Positions 816 to 62,002 of a stretch of 64,000 bases of DNA are shown here, one piece after another. A model generated the notes under the pieces. That model made no database searches, was not told the origin of the DNA, and was given only the letters and a program-made list of their open reading frames with translations. The number at the start of each line of letters is the position of its first letter. Within the stretch, counting starts at the first letter, position 1. The position numbers were made by a program, and so were the translations under genes. The stretch spans positions 83,520,686 to 83,584,685 of the forward strand of contig NC_090376.1 of NCBI RefSeq assembly GCF_036365525.1, read 5' to 3'. Source of the DNA: Heterodontus francisci. Lineage: Eukaryota.

Positions 816-1111
816 GTCTGTAAGATACAGTTATATGCATTATAACACAATCAAATTCAGCAGTACAGTAATATAAAGAGGGTGTATTTTTAAAGCTCCA
901 ATTATATTGTACAAAATTTACAAATATACTTTTCCCATGGTAAGCTGTACATTCTTCATTAATATTCTTCCACTGTATTTCAGAATCTCCCAAAACACGA
1001 CTCGCACTCACTGTGCAAGATAGCTTCCACAGGCAGACCCTGCTTGTTAGTATTTAAAACTCAATCAATGTTGTGCTTGAAGTGACTAGGTGTAACATAA
1101 TTCAGGTTCAA

Positions 1112-1157
1112 CTCTGCCTTTTGGCTAAGATCAAGTGTAGTATCTGTTCTTATCAGT
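1112..1157 (+). ncRNA. RNU2: U2 snRNA 5' fragment (approx. nt 8-53); not a complete gene
   Basis: ctctgccttttggctaagatcaagtgtagtatctgttcttatcagt versus vertebrate U2 CTCGGCCTTTTGGCTAAGATCAAGTGTAGTATCTGTTCTTATCAGT: one mismatch. Includes the GTAGTA branch-point pairing sequence. No Sm site or 3' part. Confidence 0.95.
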
Positions 1158-1220
1158 GCTTACTTGATTGAGAAGAGACCATGATCATTGCCTTTTGATC
1201 CTGGGGAAGCTTTGAGTAAA

Positions 1221-2759
1221 ATGGCTATAACCAATCTTCGAGCTTCAGGCCAGGGAGTGCGCAACACCGTTCGGGTGGTCGTGAAGGACAAGGAAGGAGA
1301 TGCACCGGTTAATCACACCCTCTTCATCAAGAAAATTCTCTTCGATTGCTGCGGATTTCAAGCGACGAACGTCTTCTGCCTGCAGGATTTCACCAGCAGT
1401 GGATACTTCGACGTGACGTTCCGGAACGTGGCGGGATGCATCAAGTTCCTGAAGGCGTTCAAGGAGAAAGGGGACCGGGTGCCACTGTCGATCCTCACAG
1501 CGGAGCCGGTCTTCACGCTTCCGTCACAACGGGACCGGGTGGTGACGATTCACCTCTACAACCCCCATGTTCCAGTGGTGGATGTACTCACCTTTCTCGC
1601 CAGGTACGTCGAGGTGGCCGGCAGCAGCACTGATGTCAAGGACCCCTTTGGGATTTGGACCAGCAAGCAGCAGGTCAAGGTGACCTTGAAGGTCGATCCC
1701 AGTGGAGCCATCATCCACCCTCCCTCCAGCTTCACTATCGGGGGAAGTCGAGGCTTCTTGGTCTACGCTGGGCAGCCCAGAGTTTGCCGCACCTGTGGCA
1801 AATCTGGTCACGTGGCGGCCAACTGCAGCACGGTTGCTTGCAAGAACTGCAAGGAGGAAGGCCATCAGACCAAGGACTGTAAGCAGACTAAGTGTTGCAA
1901 CTTGTGCGGTGCGGCAGGCCATCTCTACAAAACCTGCCCCAAACGCTGCCTCAGTTATGCTCGGGCGGCAAGGTCCAAGGAAAGGCCGGGAGAAAGGTCG
2001 ACGAAGGCGTCCGGTGTTCGAAAGGAGACCAGCAACCTTCTCCGCAGTGAGGAACTTCAACCTGAGAAGGAGAAGGAAGGGCAGGCAGCTGAAACCAGCG
2101 ACCCAGCACCTACCCTGCGCCCGGAAACCCCTCCTCCACAGACAGAATCAATGGAGGAGGAGGCAGCAGATGGACAAACAAGTCAGTGGCAAGTGGTCCA
2201 GAGGAAAACCACAAAGACAAAACATCCCAAAGTGGAACAGACCACCACCCAAACCAGTGGCAAGAGGAGGCTATCTTCTGAATCAGACTGCAACAACTCC
2301 TCTTCACTGGACGGGGGAATGCTGGAACGACAGCCCCTTCAAAAGAGGCGGCAGAACTCCAAGGAGATGGAAGATAAAGCATCCCAGCCCCCGGGCACTG
2401 GAAGCTGTGATGGGCCTGGCGTGCCCCAAACCCAAAGCGCCACACGTAACGACGTGGCCAACGCATCTCAGCTCCGGGACACCAAGAGCAAAGACGCGTC
2501 TGGCGCACCTCAGCTCCGGGAAGCCGGGAGCAGTGATGTTTTCGAGGAGAAACAGATGGAAGCAGCAGAGGATAACCCAATCTTTGCTGCCTACAAGACC
2601 CCCCCGATGTCACCCCAGCGGAAGAACCCCTGCATGAAAAACCAGGAGGGGTTTCTGAGGCCAACTATTGTGAAACAGCTTGCTCACACGATGGGTATGC
2701 AGGAACATCCCGAAGGACTGGGACTAGCAAGGACAAATGGTATGGGAAGCAACAACTAA
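1221..2759 (+). CDS. Tx1 ORF1: ZCCHC3-like nucleic-acid-binding protein with three CCHC knuckles (intact ORF)
   Basis: CRTCGKSGHVAANC, CKNCKEEGHQTKDC and CNLCGAAGHLYKTC motifs, an N-terminal RRM-like FDVTF region, and a low-complexity C-terminus. Confidence 0.88.
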   Translation: MAITNLRASGQGVRNTVRVVVKDKEGDAPVNHTLFIKKILFDCCGFQATNVFCLQDFTSSGYFDVTFRNVAGCIKFLKAFKEKGDRVPLSILTAEPVFTLPSQRDRVVTIHLYNPHVPVVDVLTFLARYVEVAGSSTDVKDPFGIWTSKQQVKVTLKVDPSGAIIHPPSSFTIGGSRGFLVYAGQPRVCRTCGKSGHVAANCSTVACKNCKEEGHQTKDCKQTKCCNLCGAAGHLYKTCPKRCLSYARAARSKERPGERSTKASGVRKETSNLLRSEELQPEKEKEGQAAETSDPAPTLRPETPPPQTESMEEEAADGQTSQWQVVQRKTTKTKHPKVEQTTTQTSGKRRLSSESDCNNSSSLDGGMLERQPLQKRRQNSKEMEDKASQPPGTGSCDGPGVPQTQSATRNDVANASQLRDTKSKDASGAPQLREAGSSDVFEEKQMEAAEDNPIFAAYKTPPMSPQRKNPCMKNQEGFLRPTIVKQLAHTMGMQEHPEGLGLARTNGMGSNN

Positions 2760-2769
2760 CTTTAAAAAA

Positions 2770-5700
2770 ATGGGTGTAAAGTTTGCTTCCATTAATGTGC
2801 GTAGCATTAAATCTACTACGCGATGTGTTTCAACCTTGGATTACCTCGCCAAGGTCAAAGATGACCTACTGTTTCAGCAGGAGTGTGGAATACCACACCG
2901 CAGCACCTACAGGTAGTGGTCGCGATGGTGGTCCCACGGGCCATCGATCTGGTCGGGGGGTCATGATTGCTGTTCCTCCGGCCTGGGTATTCTGCTGCGG
3001 AGAGGTAACTTCACCATCTCCGTAGTTGAGGAGGTGGTGGGCGGTCGCCTCCTCGTGGCAGACGTAATGTACAACAACGCTCCGCTCCGGTTGATCAACG
3101 TGTACGCCCCGGTACAACGCAGCGAGCGGCTGACCGTCTTCCAGCAGCTCCCACTGCTGCTGGCGACGTCCAGGCCGGTCATCCTAGGCGGTGACTTCAA
3201 CTGCATCATCGATGCGGCTGGACGATCCGGCAGTGACGACAGCAAACTGGACGCTACGTCCAGATTCCTAATAGAAACAGTTAAAGATGCCAAACTGCAC
3301 GACGTCTTCAGCAAACCTGCAGACGGAGCGCAGCGCAGATACACGTGGTCAAGATCGGACGGGTCTGCCCGTTCCAGGATTGACTTCCTGTTTGTGTCCC
3401 GTGCTGTCACGGTCGGATCCACCGACGTCAAGCCAGTGTTCTTCTCCGACCACTGCCTCTTACTGGCCGACTGTCACTTACAGGACGACCAGCGGGTTGG
3501 CAGAGGGACGTGGAAGCTCAATGCTACACTGCTGACCCCAGAGAACGTTAAGGAACTCAAAAGGAATTACAAAGGTTGGAGGACCGTGAAACCCCTCTTT
3601 GAGTCTCCAGTTCACTGGTGGGAAGCGATTAAGGAGAACATCAAGAGGTTCTTCATCAACAAAGGTGTTCAGAGGGCGAGAGAGAGACAGAGGGAAATGT
3701 CCCGACTCCAGAAAAGTATGCAAAATCTGCTCCGGTTGCAGTCAATGGGGGTCGAGGTCAAGGAGGACCTCCAAGAGGTGAAGAGCCAGCAGGCCTCGCT
3801 CTTTGCCACGGAGGCCTCCAAGATCATCTTCCGGTCCAGAGTCCGCTCCATCGAGCAGGATGAGACGTGCTCGGGTTACGTCTTCCAAAAGGTACACAGA
3901 GAGAGCTCTGTTATCAGCAGCCTGAAGGAAGAAGATGGCTCGGTAACGTCTTCGCAGTCCGACATGCTAAGGATCAGTAAATCCTTTTATGCTGGGCTGT
4001 TTGACGCGAAGCCCACAGACAGCAGAGCCTCCCAGTCCTTCCTGTCATCTATCACAGAGGTCTTAGAGGACAGCAGGAGGGAGAGACTGGACAAGCCGCT
4101 AACTCTGGACGAGCTGACAAAGGCCGTCGAGTCCTTCGAGACGAGTAAAACTCCCGGAAGCGACGGTTTACCAGTCGAGTTGTACTCGGCCCTGTGGGAC
4201 TGGGTCGGCCCAGACCTGCTGGAAGTATACGAGAGTATGCCCCTGGCTGGCAGCATGTCAGAATCCATGAGGAAAGGCATCATCACCCTCATTTAAAAGC
4301 GGAAGGGGGAGAGGGCAGAAATCAGAAATTGGCGGCCCATTGCACTGCTTAATGTTGACTACAAGATTCTGTCCAAAGTCATAGCCAGTTGAGTCAAATC
4401 TGCTCTGGAGTTGGTGATTCACCCCGATCAGACCTGCACTGTACCCGGCAGAAAGATCTCTGATAGTCTCGCGCTACTCAGGGATACGATCGCCTATGTA
4501 CGGGACAGGAGGGTGGACACCTGCCTCATCAGCCTGGACCAGGAGAAGGCTTTTGACAGGATATCGCACATGATGGGGGTTTGGGGAGGGAATCTGCAAT
4601 TGGATCAAACTGCTCTACACAAACATCAGTAGCGCAGTCTCAATCAACGGGTGGGAATCGGAAAGTTTCCCGATCAAATCTGGAGTCAGACAGGGCTGTC
4701 CTCTCTCCCCTGTCTAGTTTGTTTGCTGTATTGAACCCTTTGCTGAGTCTATTAGGAAGGATGCGAGCATAAGAGGGGTGACAATCTCAGGCAGCGGAGG
4801 CACTCAGGTTAAAACCTCCCTGTACATGGATGACGTCGCCGTCTTCTGCTTGGATCCGCTGTCCGTGCGCAGACTGATGAGCATCTGCGACCAGTTCGAA
4901 CTGGCCTCGGGAGCCAAAGTTAACCACGGCAGGAGCGAGGCCATGTTCTTTGGGAACTGGGCTGACCGATCCTTTGTCCCCTTCACCGTCAGGTCAGATT
5001 ACCTGAAGGTGCTGGGGATATGGTTCGGAAGGGCCGGGCCTTGCACCAAAACTTGGGAGGAGCGAGTAGCCAAGGTACAACAAAAGTTGAGCATGTGGGG
5101 GCAGCGATCTCTCTCCATTGTGGGTAAGAACCTGGTCATCCGGTGCGAGGCGCTCACGTTGTTGCTGTACGTGGCGCAGGTCTGGCCCATACCCCACTCC
5201 TGCGCTGTGGCGGTCACCCAAGCCATCTTCCACTTCATCTGGGGATCTAAAATGGACAGGGTCCGGAGGGACACGATGTTCAAATCTCTGGACAAGGGCG
5301 GGAAAAATGTACCCAACGTGGCCCTGATCCTGATGACCACCTTCGTGTGCGGCTGCATCAAGCTGTGTGTCGATCTCCAGTACACAAACTCCAAGTGTCA
5401 CTACGTGCTGAGGTTCTATCTGTCCCCGGTGTTGCGAAGGATGGGCCTGGTCACATTGCCGGGGAACGCTCCATGCAGTTGGACCGTGCCGTACCACCTA
5501 TCCTTCGTGGAGCAGTTTCTGCGGGAAAACACCTTTGACCAGCGGTCCATCAGGCAGTGGTCTGCACGGAATGTCCTCAAGGCCCTACAGGAAAAGGAGA
5601 CGGGGGATCCTGTCGGATGGTTCCCCGAGCAGACCACCAAAGTCATTTGGCGGAATGTCTCATCACCAGAACTTTCAAACAAGCACCAAGATGTAGCTTG

Positions 5701-6154
5701 GCTGGTGATGAGAAGGGCCCTCCCCGTCAGATCCTTCATGCACGCCCAAAGTCTCGCCCCCTATGCACAATGCCCCCGCGGTGGCTGTGGTGGGGAAGAG
5801 ACGGTCACCCACCTCCTCCTGGAATGCGTCTTTGCAACGCAGGTGTGGAAAGAGATGCAGTGTTTTTTGTCAAGGTTCATCCCAAGCAGCTCTGTAACAC
5901 AGGTGTCTGTGCTCTACGGGCTGTTCCCAGGGACGCACACCGAGACAAACATCAACTGCTGCTGGAGGACTATCAATTCGGTGAAAGACACCCTTTGGTC
6001 TGCCCAAAACTTGCTGGTCTTCCAGCGCAAAGAGTTGTCCACGACTGAATGTTGCAGACTGGCACATTCCAAGGTCCAGGACTACGTGCTGAGGGACGCA
6101 CTAAAGCTTGGGGCAGCCACAGCAAAGGGTCAATGGGGAAAGACCACAGTGTAA
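2770..6154 (+). pseudogene. Tx1 ORF2 (AP endonuclease, reverse transcriptase, CCHC), disrupted
   Basis: Motifs MGVKFASINVRS, GGDFN, SRIDF, FSDH, LDQEKAFD, YMDD and CPRGGCGGEETVTHLLLEC. In-frame stops near 2914, 4294, 4390 and 4715, and a frameshift/deletion near 4572. Confidence 0.9.
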
Positions 6155-6949
6155 GGTCCCCCCCACCAAGCTGAACTGAGGGGCTGGATTCATGGGAAAC
6201 CCCTCAAACTGTATCAGGAAAATTCTGTGTGCTGTAAATGTAAAAATGTATGTGGCATGACAATGAAATGGAAGGGTTGTGAGGCAACTCAAAATTGTAT
6301 GGAAGGAAACTGATCACCTTTGCACTGTTTGTATTTTTTGACTTGATGCTGTTTTCAACTGTTTGGGAATGTAATTTTTACAGATTTTTATGAATAAAGT
6401 ATATTTTGAAAATAAAAAAAAAATAATTCAGGTTCAACAACACACCCTATCTTGGGTAACCACTGGAAGAGTGCAGGTTTGTCCACTCCTGACCTCTCAG
6501 GTAGGCAGAAAACCACTACATTGATAGGCAAAATTGTTCAAGTTAAAGCTACTAACTGGGCACATTGTAAAAAACAGAAAGTTAAATCTGCTGATAAAAT
6601 AGCTGTCACTGATGTCTTAAACAGTTTTATCTGACTAAAATAACAAAGCAATGCAAAATTCTTGGGAGTATCTCACCTCATAAAAGCTCTTATAGCCTGC
6701 GTCTTAGAAAGAGATGCTGGAAATATTGTAACATGGAGCTAAACAGTTGGAAAATATGAACTAACTAAATGGTGAAAGCTCAATCCAGAGCAAAGACACA
6801 ATGGAGCACCCCGAATACAAGCTAAAAATAAACTTCACACCTTGTCTAAACTCTATGCTTTGTTGTGGTATGTTTGAATCCATCAAAAGAACAGCTGTCA
6901 GATCAAAGCACCTGGTCTGTGTTTTGCAGACCCATTGATCCATGGCATT

Positions 6950-12204: not shown

Positions 12205-12800
12205 AGGGAACACTGAGCAGGCAGCGGGGAACACTGAGCGGGCAGCGGGGAACACGGAGCTGTGAGCAGGAAAATCGGAGCGGGGAGCGGAGAACACTGA
12301 GCAGGGAGAGGGAAACACGGCGTGGGAAGTAGGGAACACTGAGCAGGGAGTGGGAAACACGGAGTGGGGAACATGGAGAGGGAAACAGGGAACACTGAGT
12401 AGGGAGTGGGAAACACGGAGCGGGGAACATGGAGAGGGAAGCAGTGAACACTGAGCAGGGAGCACTGAGCAGGGAGCGGGGAACACAGAGCAGGGAGCGG
12501 GGAACACAGAGCAGGGGGCGGGGAACATGAAGTGGGGAACACAGAGCAGGAAGCGGGGAACACGGAGCGGAGAGTGGTGAACACTGAGGGGGGACGGGGA
12601 ACACAGAGCAGGAAGCAGGGAACACGGGAGATACTGTGGGAGGGGGGGAGATAGAGAGAGGGGGAGAAAGAGAGAGGGAGAAGGGGGGAGAGAGGGGGGA
12701 GAGAGGGACAGAGACAGGGGAGGGACAGAAACAGGAACAGAGAGGGGGAGAGAGAGAGAGAGAGAGCGAGAGGGGTAAGAGAATGGGGAGAGCCAGAGGG
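12205..12800. repeat. ~21-bp minisatellite (gggaacactgagcagggagcg variants) grading into GA-rich low-complexity sequence
   Basis: Repeated gggaacac(t/a/g)gagc units. Explains the repetitive CSVFPAP/PLPA ORFs. Confidence 0.9.
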
Positions 12801-16599: not shown

Positions 16600-17690
16600 T
16601 CTCCTGCAAGCACAAGAAAGAATACTGTGTCACAGAGCCAAGCACAATGTCTATGCTGCCAGCAGCCTAGCGGTCGATGAAGGGGGCAAATCAATACGGC
16701 CACTCTCGAGGGTCTGCAATGAGAGACAGGCACCTCTCACCAAGATGCCTCTGACAGTTAATGCTGCTGCCTGACTCATTTCCACTGACTGGTTGGTCAC
16801 TCCCTCTCCATAAAACACAAGAGCAAGGCAGGAGACCTTCTTCCCAAGGGATGGGAAGAGGAGACTGGCCCGCCTGACCAAGTAAGCCTGGACAGAGATT
16901 GCAGAGGAGGTCAGCAGCCATGGAATCACCAAGCAAACCTAGATACAGTGTTGCAAGCACATTAACAATGCACCTTCTCACATGGCCTCATGCAAGGTCC
17001 CTTGAGGAGACCTCCTGCCTTGCCCTTGCAGCTTGGAGGAGAAACTGCATGGAGGCTTTGCTGGACCATGGGGCCACCTGGGGTCTTCGTTCTGCATTTC
17101 TTACTGCATGCTTCTGACCAGCTTCTTGCTTGAAGGCACCAGTCAGGCAGTGGACTCCAGTTTTAAGGCACCAGTCAGGAAGAGGACTCCAGTTTTAAGG
17201 CACCAGTCAGGAAGAGGACTCCAGTTTTAAGGCACCAGTCAGGCAGAGGACTCCAGTTTTAAGGCACCAGTCAGGCAGAGGACTCCAGTTTTATGGCACC
17301 ATTCAGGCAGAAGATTCTAGTTTCAAGGCACCAGTCAGGAAGAGGACTCCAGTTTTAAAGCATCAGTCAGGCAGAGGACTCTTCTGATCAGTCATCAGTG
17401 AATGCAAGGCTAGCAGCCCTTTAAATTTGGCGCTGCCACCTGCCATGGTGTCACCTAACGCCACATTACCGCCTCGCTTCCCACCTCTACACTTCAACTG
17501 GATGGCCCCCATGTCTCCCCTGAGTGAATTGTCTAGCCGCTGTGAGATCACGTGCGGCTGGCCTCTGAACGCCTGAGTGAAAGTGGCAACCACTTCCAGT
17601 GCAGCCTTGTCGCAAAATCCAACCCAATATTTCAGTATGGATGGGGTGTAGGGGCAGATATTAACAGAAATGATTGGCTGCAACCTTAAA
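16600..17690 (-). mobile_element. Harbinger element 5' part (Myb/SANT-like exon, rearranged)
   Basis: Minus-strand PQVAPWSSKASMQFLLQAARARQEV and plus-strand RARQETFFPRDGKRRLARLTK*AWTEIAEEVSS. Confidence 0.6.
17133..17381. repeat. 32-bp minisatellite, ~7.8 copies
   Basis: Unit aaggcaccagtcagg(c/a)agaggactccagtttt at 32-bp spacing, with no spacers. Confidence 0.95.
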
Positions 17691-36414: not shown

Positions 36415-37330
36415 AACCCTCCTGCGGTGGGGGGGGGGGAGGCTCTGGTTTTTTTCAGGCTAGCTTGCTAAAATGGAGGTGTCTCAGCTGTTCTCAAGTG
36501 TTCGCTGCTGTTATAATAGGCTTTTTTAGGGTTTTCCCCTTTGCTTGAGAAATTCACTTTGGTTTTTTTCAGGCTTGGTTGCCTTACTGGAGTGTCCCAG
36601 TTCTTGAGAGTTCCCTGCTGTTTAAATAGGCTTCTTAAGGGTTTTCCCTTTCCATTGAGAATTTTAGTTCGTTTTTTTCAAGCTTGCTTGCCTTAATGGA
36701 GTATCCTGCTGTGTTCGGGGATTTCCCGTGCGTTTCGACAGTTCGCATGCTTGTCAGGGGCTTCCCGCTCTTTGCCCTCACATTCAGCACGAGTGAAGGA
36801 TTGTTTTTACCCCCATTTTCTTTCCCTTCGAGCATGATGCCTTCAGAAAATTACTTTGTTTTCAAAGAGCTTTTAACTCACTAGATAGCTGGATTCTATT
36901 TGCAGGTGTGGACGCTTCTATTGCAGCTCCACAGTCTCTTCTGTAGCTAAGTAGTTTTCTTACTGTTCCGGGTTAGTATTTCTCTTCAAATTTCTTTGTT
37001 GTTCCCCTGGTGTTTCTTGTTAAGGTAATGAGATCTTCAAATTCTCCTGGTTGCTTTCACTGTTGCCACCTTGTTGCATTGTTGGGTTTGTATTAGTAGC
37101 ATTAGGGCATTCTAGAGAAAGTTGTAGTCTCCGGTAACAATTCTTTATTATTTAGTTACTATATAAACTCTCCGCACGCTACCTAAGTGAGCGTCCTTGG
37201 TGCTGCTAAACCTTCTTCTTTCACGCCTATCTCATGTGACTGTTACATCATCGCTCGTAAAGTGGGAGGGGTCTCTCTCAGTGTCTCGGTTATTACCCCT
37301 TTACATCCTTATATTAACTATCCTACAACA
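36415..37330 (-). mobile_element. Truncated LTR retrotransposon: 5' LTR, PBS and leader with a ~115-bp tandem repeat
   Basis: Minus-strand LTR tgttgtagg...aataaa...cccaaca (37330-37080), PBS-like tggcaacagtg (37058-37068), ~2.5 degenerate repeat units at 36445-36720. Confidence 0.6.
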
Positions 37331-60498: not shown

Positions 60499-62002
60499 GA
60501 AATTATTTTCCATAATTCCTTAAATTCAGGAATGGTCCCTTCAGATTGGAAGTTGTCAAATGTTACACCACTTTTCAAGAAAGGAAGTAGAGAGAAAACA
60601 GGGAACTACAGGCCAGTTAGCCTGACATCAGTCATTGGGAAGATGCTGGAAACTATTATTAAAGAAGGCTTAACATTGCACTTGGAAAAGCATAGTATGA
60701 TTAGAACAAGTCAGCATGGTTTTACTAAAGGGAGATCCTGTTTGACAAATTTATTAGAGTTTTTTGAGAATGTTAACTAGTAGGGTAGATAAAGGGGAAC
60801 CAGTAGATGTAGTATACCTGGATTTCCAAAAGACATTCAATAAGCTGCCACATAAAAGATTAATAGGCAAGATAAAGGCTCATGGTGTTGGGGGTAATAT
60901 ATTAGCATGGATAGAGGATTGGTTAACAGTCAGGAAGCAGAAAGTGGGCATAAATGGAGCATTTTCAAGTTGACAGGCAGTGAATATTGGGGTGCTGCAT
61001 GGATCAGTGCTGGGGCCTCAGCTACTTACACTCCATATTAATGACGGATGAAGAGACAGAGAGTAATGTATCTAAGTTTGCTGATGATACAAAGCTCGGC
61101 GGAAAGGTAATCTGCGGGAGGACGTAGAGAGGCTACAAAGAGATACAGACAGGTTTAGTGAGTGGGCAACAAGATAGCAAATGGAGTATAATGTAGGAAA
61201 GTGTAAAGTTGTTCACTTTGGTTGTAAAAATGGAAAAACGGAATATTTTTTTAAAAGGTGTGAAACTGGTAAGTGTTGATGTTCAGAGAGACTTGGGGGT
61301 ACTCATACAAGGAATGCACAAAGTTAACATGCAGGTGCAGCAGGCTATTAGGAAGACAAATGGCATGTTGGCCTTTATTGCAAGGGGATTGCAGTACACG
61401 AATAAAGAAGTATTACCGAAACTGTACAGGGCGTTGGTGAGACCGGACCTGGAATACTGTGTGCAGTTTTGATCTCTACATTTAAGAAAGGATATACTTG
61501 CACTGGAGGCAATGCAGTGAAGATTTATTAAATTGGTCCCTGGGATGAGGGGGCTGTCCTATGATGAGAGGCTGAGTAAATTGGGCCTATATTCTCTGGA
61601 GTTTAGAAGAATGAGAGGCAATTTAATTGGGACATACAAGATTCTGAAAAGGCTTGATAGGGTAGAAGCTGAGAGATAGTTCCCACTGGTCAGGGCATCT
61701 AGAACACGGGGACATAGTTTCACTATAAGGGGCCAATCATTCAGGACTGAGATGAGGAGAAATTACTTCACTCAAAGGATTGTGAATCTTTGGAATTCTC
61801 TACCACAGAGGTTGTGGATGCTCCATCATTGAATTTAAGGCAGGGATAGATAGATTTTTGACCTCAAGGGGAATCAAGGGATGTGGGCAGCGGGCAAGAA
61901 AGTGGAATTGATGCCCAAGACAGGCCATTATCGTATTGAATGGTGGAGCAGGCTCGATGTGCCATATGGTCTACTTCTGCTCCTATTTCTTGTGTTCTTG
62001 TG
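60499..62002 (+). mobile_element. CR1 LINE RT and 3' end
   Basis: GMVPSDWKLSNVTPLFKKGSREKTGNYRPVSLTS, VYLDFQKTF, FADDTKL. Confidence 0.92.

Follow-up and report, generated by a model that had tools for sequence, protein, structure and literature searches.

Very probably, as the sequences compared here argue, the U2-headed LINE of Heterodontus francisci is a leaky element of the Keno type, whose donor copies reside in the arrays of U2 snRNA genes and borrow U2 transcription. The copy lying in the window (the whole stretch of 64,000 nucleotides analyzed) is a dead, scattered member of this Keno-type Tx1 LINE family. The initial annotation of the window had proposed that the donor sat inside a U2 gene and that the U2 head was carried off target; this idea is in agreement with the constant junction at U2 nt 53, with the copies harbored by U2 genes, and with the export of array DNA, all described below.

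The Element in the Window

The organization of the copy is reported in Table 1. As described in the initial annotation, an exact 16-bp TSD (ATAATTCAGGTTCAAC) encloses a U2 piece and a full-length Tx1 LINE, the insertion site is not U2, U2 sequence is absent downstream of the tail, ORF1 is intact, and the lesions of ORF2 are few: four in-frame stops (2914, 4294, 4390, and 4715) and one deletion region near 4568-4576, where 6 + 17 nt are lost with a frameshift. The initial A of the TSD may be derived from the tail instead. The head had been placed at U2 nt ~8-53; nt 9-53 are indeed matched (44 of 45 positions identical to the U2 genes of the same genome, with one mismatch), whereas nt 8 coincides with the final base of the TSD. 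The Rfam U2 match (1107-1213; 43.5 bits, E 4e-6) is slightly below the gathering score of 46; the other Rfam matches near the element (snoU2-30 and two miRNAs, E 0.27-0.6) were discarded as chance or antisense to U2.

ORF2 matches the Pfam domains Exo_endo_phos, RVT_1, and zf-RVT, the RVT_1 match being weak (E 8e-4) because the ORF is broken. When compared to the array copy L032, ORF1 shows 89% identity, and ORF2 shows 93% identity to an open ORF2 of 1135 aa. The insertion had also been regarded as recent, which was overstated: the copy is mid-aged, with its nearest array copy 4.6% away and a terminal branch of 0.022, and in the tree it ranks among the older 21 of the 43 scattered copies.

Table 1. 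Features of the U2-headed LINE copy in the window.
Feature	Position	Strand	Basis
Left TSD, 16 bp	1097..1112	+	repeats 6423-6438 exactly
U2 snRNA head, U2 nt 9-53	1113..1157	+	Rfam RF00004; genomic U2 genes; family-invariant nt-53 junction at its 3' end
Own 5' UTR of the element, 63 nt	1158..1220	+	adjoins U2 nt 53 in array copies
ORF1, 512 aa, open	1221..2759	+	two ZCCHC3-type RBDs and a zf-CCHC zinc knuckle
ORF2 (AP endonuclease, reverse transcriptase, zf-RVT), broken	2770..6154	+	Pfam domains; comparison with L032
3' UTR; AATAAA at 6393-6398	6155..6408	+	sequence; 34-nt end piece repeated in the genome
A-rich tail	6409..6422	+	sequence
Right TSD	6423..6438	+	repeats 1097-1112; no U2 after it

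The U2 Head throughout the Family

The family comprises about 7,450 3' ends (7454 exact genome matches of the last 34 nt of the 3' UTR), and a 33-nt piece of the 5' UTR has 769 exact matches genome-wide. Among the first-listed copies found via their own 5' UTR, the U2 sequence ended at nt 53 in 30 out of 30 full-length 5' ends; its start fell within nt 1-11 in 29 of them and at nt 24 in the remaining one, and in none of the 30 did it reach upstream of U2 +1. Ten further loci were read from a search for U2 whose sequence gives way to a non-U2 base beyond nt 53, and each of them runs into the full-length 5' UTR; no U2 head was found on 5'-truncated scattered copies among those whose 5' ends were read. 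A head present throughout the family with an invariant junction rules out a one-off chimera, a possibility that the initial annotation had wished to see checked on the 5' ends of other copies; the rarity of U2-headed copies that it implied does not hold either, as hundreds of scattered ones exist. Variants common to at least three copies occupy 0 of 41 head columns vs 7 of 55 UTR columns (p 0.02), a comparison biased by the choice of the copies, partly made by head similarity; this suggests that the head might track the U2 sequence of the host.

U2 Arrays as the Home of Young Copies

U2 tandem arrays with a 577-bp unit, in which the upstream spacer measures 388 bp, hold the element as U2(1-53)-element-A tail-U2(38 or 35 to 191); U2 genes are thus occupied by family members at the site known from Keno, as the donor model anticipated. 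In 400 kb of contig C41, a region selected because insertions are present there, we counted 82 intact U2 genes, 74 5' parts, and 73 3' parts; nearly half of the units are interrupted, at two main positions, by many distinct truncated copies. In the same region, U2 resumes at nt 33-39 after 83 of 89 tails (nt 38/39 in 61 cases, nt 35/36 in 17, and nt 33 in 5), and the 3' junction after nt 37 agrees with the Keno target given in PMC6136364. At the 5' side, all 44 full-length array copies are joined at nt 53, vs 7 of the 39 truncated ones, whose junctions span nt 34-59. The truncated junctions also gather at nt 50-53, so the second nick may just fall close to nt 53.

Both ORFs (508 aa and 1135 aa in array copies) are open in 29 of the 42 array copies vs 5 of the 43 scattered ones (Fisher p 5e-8), the array set including duplicates due to array turnover and hence not being made up of independent copies only. 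The five scattered copies with two open ORFs are possible donors. The copy tree is ladder-shaped, with the array copies (mean pairwise distance 0.9%) at its young tip; six scattered copies are nested within the array clade, one of which (L050) is only 0.1% from an array copy. Mid-aged scattered copies form small supported clades without array members, and since no array relatives of the older scattered copies survive, the origin of these copies from the array would be an extrapolation.

Off-Target Sites and Transduced Array DNA

On-target junctions number 340 vs the 7454 tails, that is, about 95% of the standing copies lie off target, and U2 follows the tail in only 1 of 30 sampled tails. Thus, the restriction to U2 genes typical of Keno was not observed among the standing copies. 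The analysis of 34 off-target sites revealed no cryptic U2-like targets (6.06 matches vs 6.37 in shuffled sequences, p 0.83). The only motif shared by these sites is an A at -1, present in 29 of 34 and favored by the alignment of the tail itself. Most off-target insertions have TSDs.

Array DNA was carried onto other contigs. Fourteen scattered loci contain such DNA (3' part of U2, spacer, and, in one case, a whole U2 gene), within TSDs in 9 of the 14. Twelve of them are the loci where the tail is joined to U2 nt 38 away from the array; all 12 show the array structure, with an outer TSD of 8-16 bp in 7. In the other two, spacer is found with the 5' part of U2 and a truncated element, inside 11-bp TSDs read by eye. 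All the transductions seen are array-derived, the search being aimed at these only. Loci L283 and L284 show that some of the RNAs started upstream of the +1 of a unit.

Start of Transcription

A G precedes U2 +1 in 38 of 73 exact complete scattered heads (contigs C1-C38), a frequency exceeding the 22% expectation (p 2e-8), and the array has a C at this position. An extra G of this kind can stem from reverse transcription of the cap; the G before U2 +1 is a likely cap trace, and the RNA of the element would likely start at the U2 start site, from the U2 promoter. Upstream of the array U2, we found no promoter element common to both classes of U2 genes (the 100 nt upstream being no closer than shuffled sequences, 463/1000) and no octamer-like motif; the same 100 nt are CpG-rich (o/e 0.99 vs 0.31). 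Parts of the window occur in 13 of the 16 sequencing runs listed, in all cases as assembled contigs and mostly of unsure kind, and one of the 13 is recorded as RNA (share 0.08).

Origin of the U2-Headed Copies

The following scenario very probably accounts for these data. With the element lodged in the array as described above, a polymerase starting at U2 +1 of an occupied unit would produce a capped U2(1-53)-LINE RNA, so that the element would need no promoter of its own and, since the RNA begins with U2 nt 1-53, the head would be carried wherever it inserts. At times, as the DNA products show, the RNA extends beyond the tail, through the 3' part of U2 and the spacer to the following unit, and is inserted elsewhere. 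At a U2 target, the cDNA might anneal through its U2 head with the part of the cut gene lying upstream, an interaction that would hold the junction at nt 53 and avoid a doubled head, similar to the model for R2 and 28S; off target, the head is copied whole or nearly whole inside the TSD, of which the window copy is an example, at sites without U2 similarity except for the A at the nick. The scattered copies would lack the upstream U2 promoter and mostly be dead ends, and the array would represent the nursery of the family.

Other explanations can be proposed. The finding that two ORFs are open in some scattered copies, along with the scattered-only clades among the mid-aged ones, would fit a mixed source, in which the array makes copies and scattered U2-headed copies are substantial donors as well, either through an internal promoter in the head and 5' UTR, which would equally give a cap at +1, or through host read-through processed at U2 +1; the crocodilian Tx1-11_Crp, U2-headed and belonging to Tx1-Mar, a group said to prefer Mariner-N4_AMi, also fits it (PMC4494074). 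We consider this unlikely: shared variants are absent from the head and present in the UTR, six scattered copies are nested in the array clade, and the transductions, although only array-derived ones were sought, all come from the array.

It is hardly credible that every insertion acquires its head anew from free U2 snRNA, through template switching or through RNA ligation as in U6-L1 chimeras and with no U2-gene donor, when scattered (30/30) and array (44/44) full-length copies share the nt 53 junction, which is the end of the on-target duplication. Each of the ten extra loci has a full-length 5' UTR next to the head, no head is present on the truncated scattered copies read, and the published cases of template switching have variable junctions, up to 22 nt (PMC4494074). 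In favor of this explanation, template switching is the model proposed for SINEU heads (PMC4494074), and capped U2 snRNA would also yield the starts at +1 and the G. As for the alternative of the initial annotation, that is, a U2 head fixed long ago with U2 targeting lost and U2-gene copies present by chance, the excess of off-target copies, the near absence of U2 after the sampled tails, and the unlikeness of their sites to U2 would speak for it; however, the interruption, at two main positions, of almost every second U2 unit of the selected 400 kb and the youth and integrity of the array copies make it very improbable, and, as stated, it is refuted, targeting being persistent but leaky.

Returning to donors in the U2 arrays, a broader reading, to which we give slightly less than an even chance, is as follows. 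The LINE would have no promoter of its own, the U2 array would be its only productive home, and the head would be renewed from the host gene at each cycle and guide precise re-entry into U2; the ~7,000 scattered copies would be spill-over. This route, rather than template switching, might found U2-headed LINEs and SINEU-type heads, and the same read-through might bring entire U2 genes, along with the spacer upstream of them, onto new chromosomes.

Comparison with Known Systems

Each part of this scenario is already published, namely Keno, U2-headed crocodilian Tx1, and R2-style co-transcription; in the literature searched, outside of which lie Repbase entries, figures, and supplements, we came upon no description of scattered, U2-headed Keno copies with donors in U2 arrays. 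A single family here displays the whole chain, from young intact donors in U2 arrays to the invariant U2 1-53 head, the likely cap trace, and the array transductions, so that promoter borrowing becomes directly testable. It is a site-specific LINE combining heavy occupancy of the target array with thousands of copies spilled genome-wide, and it moved a complete U2 gene together with its upstream spacer. Donors in U2 arrays and unrelated landing sites would be a simple route to U2-headed mobile elements.

The top 120 protein matches include the fish ORF2s BAD04856 (40%) and BAC82621 (38%), presumably KenoFr1 and KenoDr1; in accession look-ups, only AB111948 was linked to Keno_Tn, and BAD04856 was linked to Takifugu. 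In an RT tree of 115 rows, whose outgroup and Keno labels are unverified, the family falls into one group with ORF2s of newt and frog (SH-aLRT 99), and the teleost clade that contains BAD04856 and BAC82621 is separate from it. Two ORFs, APE and RT in ORF2, a Tx1-like nature, and U2 insertion after nt 37 are shared with Keno, a U2 snRNA gene-specific, APE-type LINE of the Tx1 clade (Kojima and Fujiwara 2004, as cited in PMC4494074, PMC4640811, and PMC6136364). In contrast to that described specificity, about 95% of the H. francisci copies lie elsewhere, at unrelated sites; its full-length scattered copies carry the U2 1-53 head, and array DNA is transduced.

The crocodilian Tx1-Mar elements, reported along with SINEU, are likewise Keno-related Tx1 LINEs with snRNA heads, U2-derived in Tx1-11_Crp, outside U2 genes (Kojima 2015, PMC4494074). 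The same paper describes them as old (85-87% to the consensus), preferring Mariner-N4_AMi, with heads ascribed to template switching; dependence on flanking promoters is raised there as a possibility, and the way in which SINEU and other snRNA-headed retroelements are transcribed when they have no internal promoter is presented there as an open question. Tx1-Mar and SINEU have U1- or U2-derived heads, as have the 30 sampled H. francisci copies; no U2-gene donor is described for the former, whereas the H. francisci arrays hold young intact ones. Chimeras of the U6-L1 type differ in being a minority of copies, on variably truncated LINE parts, whereas the H. francisci head is on all sampled full-length copies, with one junction, and is lacking on the truncated scattered copies read.

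R2, whose endonuclease is restriction-like, also has a tandem RNA-gene array as its home; the H. francisci family differs in its APE, in an RNA likely beginning at the host cap site, and in its massive off-target insertion. R2 is co-transcribed with the 28S rDNA array and has a self-cleaving ribozyme (Eickbush, Burke and Eickbush 2013, PMC3774820), and the target sequence on the 5' end of its RNA has been proposed to anneal to the target, giving uniform 5' junctions (PMC3774820). This pattern is also observed here, with junctions uniform in full-length and variable in truncated on-target copies. Finally, the RLE-type Utopia targets the identical U2 site, and its reptile families are weakly specific, with many copies outside U2 genes, at sites often similar to the U2 one and rarely with TSDs (PMC4640811); the H. 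francisci family has an endonuclease of a different class, and its off-target sites are unlike U2 and mostly flanked by TSDs.

Structure of the window copy

The initial annotation had described a 16-bp target site duplication (TSD) enclosing a U2 piece (nt ~8-53) together with a LINE, and this observation is real. No U2 sequence lies 3' of the tail of this copy. The head is identical to the genome's own U2 at 44 of 45 positions; its RF00004 match stays below the gathering score of 46, and no other Rfam family attains its own gathering score in the window either. ORF2 carries stops at 2914, 4294, 4390 and 4715, as well as a loss near 4568-4576 that causes a frameshift.

Features of the U2-headed LINE copy and other repeats in the window
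Feature	Position	Details
Direct repeat (TSD)	1097-1112 and 6423-6438	16 bp, exact
U2 snRNA nt 9-53	1113-1157	Rfam RF00004, E 4e-6, 43.5 bits
5' UTR	between U2 head and ORF1	63 nt
ORF1	1221-2759	open
ORF2	2770-6154	endonuclease, RT, zf-RVT
3' UTR, then A tail	between ORF2 and right TSD	
Minisatellite	12206-12797	purine-rich
Tandem repeat	17133-17381	32 bp, 7.8 copies
Repeat	36446-36706	110 bp
Distant LINE reverse transcriptase fragments	60505-61042	28-29% identity, E 3e-8

The U2 head across the family

The genome searched comprised 6.0 Gb in 2306 contigs. A 34-nt piece from the 3' end of the family has 7454 exact matches, and 29 of the 30 first listed align at 85% or more to the family reference around the tail, the remaining one resembling an older relative. 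A 33-nt piece from the element's own 5' UTR has 769 matches; in the first 30 of these, a sample in whose choice U2 played no part, U2 ending at nt 53 directly precedes the UTR in every copy. The head begins with nt 1 in eight of them, within nt 1-11 in 29 and at nt 24 in one, and DNA from upstream of U2 genes precedes it in none of these 30 full-length copies. Ten more loci, retrieved by searching for U2 that gives way to a non-U2 base past nt 53, all belong to this family at 86-98% identity to the reference, so that older subfamilies share the nt-53 junction. The U2 head is a trait of the whole family. Moreover, variants common to at least three of 43 copies, chosen partly by head similarity, are absent from the head and present in 7 of 55 UTR columns (p 0.02), a pattern in which, with this selection in mind, the head appears to track U2 rather than the element.

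Copies inside the U2 arrays

On contig C41, U2 genes are arranged in tandem, repeating every 577 bp; exact matches to upstream DNA plus U2 number 1074, four of them on contigs before C41. Within the arrays the arrangement is U2(1-53), element, A tail and U2 from nt 38 or 35 to 191. Junctions between an A tail and U2 number 340 genome-wide, with 12 of the first 100 listed outside C41. In 400 kb of array, picked for having insertions, we counted 82 intact U2 genes, along with 74 fragments from the 5' side and 73 from the 3' side. After 89 array tails, U2 continues from nt 38/39 in 61, nt 35/36 in 17, nt 33 in five and later positions in three, three being without assignment; nt 38 matches the Keno site that PMC6136364 quotes. 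The nt-53 join is present in each of the 44 full-length array copies and in 7 of the 39 truncated ones whose U2 start could be read (the others lying at nt 34-59), a set including some duplicates from array turnover.

Some U2 units hold elements in tandem with U2 nt 35/38-53 between them (L171-L210, L032 and L034 on C41), which implies that the U2 part before a resident copy was itself re-targeted. In array a3 (about G000:C41:6.63 Mb), U2 nt 129 is followed by a full-length copy whose head is U2 8-53, apparently an insertion away from the usual site but within the array itself, and in array a1 (about G000:C41:6.36 Mb) orientation flips inside a U2 3' part between two elements. The genome has two U2 gene classes (L051-L058, at G000:C41:21.6-22.0 Mb, versus L059-L080), 90.6% identical and with unrelated upstream DNA: one is the invaded 577-bp tandem class, and in the other the genes are spaced by about 23 kb or more. 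All eight loci examined of the latter are intact, and about 1 kb downstream of them, on the opposite strand, lies the 3' end of an older Tx1 element (about 80% to the family).

Origin of the scattered copies

Of 42 full-length array copies, 29 keep both ORFs open, against 5 of 43 scattered ones (p 5e-8; 45 scattered candidates, two excluded for having no tail within range). The tree of these 85 copies is a ladder, with scattered copies leaving along the trunk and array copies at the young tip, where the latter differ by 0.9% on average. Six scattered copies nest within the array clade, one of them 0.1% from an array copy. Array copies thus look like the donors; that scattered copies, some of which retain open ORFs, have been substantial donors as well seems rather improbable. 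The insertion in the window had been called recent, which is overstated, since this copy is 4.6% from its nearest array copy and falls in the older half. At least 98.5% identity to an array copy was found in 6 of 30 sampled tails, so off-target insertions are probably the more numerous even among young copies, a rough estimate given that insertions are purged from arrays.

Array DNA itself has reached scattered sites. Twelve scattered loci with a junction between tail and U2 nt 38 all have array structure: in six, U2 38 to about 55-64 lies between the element and a second, truncated one; three others carry U2 from nt 38 up to 130, 132 or 191; and the last three continue through U2 38-191 and the entire spacer into the following unit. 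An outer TSD (8-16 bp) and a separate A tail mark seven of these loci. Array-made RNA has therefore been inserted off target. Two further loci carry spacer, the 5' part of U2 and a truncated copy of the element within 11-bp TSDs (identified by eye), and such spacer-headed insertions imply that part of the array RNA began upstream of a unit's +1 (U2 nt 1). Of the three loci that reach the following unit, L265 (G000:C4:38.48-38.49 Mb) holds an entire U2 gene, 100% identical to array U2, together with all 388 bp of the spacer upstream of it, bounded by a 10-bp TSD; this locus is a U2 orphon made by the LINE.

Among scattered copies, 4 of 30 full-length ones (L114, L126, L133, L140) have another's tail just upstream across a few-base gap. 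Further head-to-tail pairs are L048, L050, L089, L095 and L235; in L048 and L050 the two members are of unequal age, suggesting that a later insertion hit the site again. L036, L037, L042 and L048 are broken by 330-360 bp of foreign sequence, probably SINE insertions.

Proposed RNA start and mechanism

Exact complete heads number 241, of which 73 are on C1-C38. The base before nt 1 is G in 38 of these 73, the array base being C (p 2e-8 against an expectation of 22% G). In three TSD-resolved cases (L039, L044, L217) a G stands between TSD and nt 1, and in two others a different base does. In L1 work an extra G is read as the trace of a reverse-transcribed cap, and the G here is likely such a trace. 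The array spacer is CpG-rich (o/e 0.99 versus 0.31), and a search of it for a promoter motif found none.

From these sequence comparisons, we consider it very probable that U2 arrays are home to this Keno-type LINE and that its transcription would start at U2 +1, giving a capped U2(1-53)-LINE RNA. The earlier proposal of a donor within a U2 gene is supported by the constant nt-53 head, the copies in U2 arrays and the array DNA at scattered loci. On target, the head would likely anneal to the cut U2 gene on its upstream side, by analogy with R2, for which PMC3774820 reports an annealing role proposed for upstream 28S sequence; this would account for the invariant nt-53 junction. Off target, the head would be copied within the TSD.

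Template switching, to which the crocodilian work ascribes head gains (PMC4494074), is a very remote prospect for a family with a single junction. Hardly any probability attaches, either, to a head that became fixed as U2 targeting was lost. The 34 TSD-resolved off-target sites have no excess of U2-site likeness (6.06 matches versus 6.37 shuffled). The family is thus two-moded, with precise insertion in U2 genes and near-random insertion off target.

Comparison with known elements

Keno is described as U2-specific in PMC4494074, PMC4640811 and PMC6136364. Our family resembles it in its two-ORF structure and U2 insertion site but lacks its strict specificity; as the RT tree does not discriminate Keno membership either way, we call it "Keno-type" rather than an established Keno member. 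Kojima 2015 (PMC4494074) reports a U2 head in the crocodilian Tx1-11_Crp and leaves SINEU transcription as an open question, with flank dependence raised as a possibility; weakly specific reptile families are mentioned for Utopia in PMC4640811. PMC4746887, PMC4889948 and PMC4275248 were consulted for accession numbers. Kojima and Fujiwara 2004 and Repbase aside, we found no published account in which donors in U2 arrays give rise to scattered copies with a U2 head. Among named ORF2 sequences, the nearest relatives come from amphibians (49%) and teleosts (about 40%), the closest being P0001 and P0004 (Pleurodeles) and P0003 (Ranitomeya). The newt relatives cluster in 37 and 99 members spread over several long contigs, and that genome may therefore hold an off-target expansion of the same kind.
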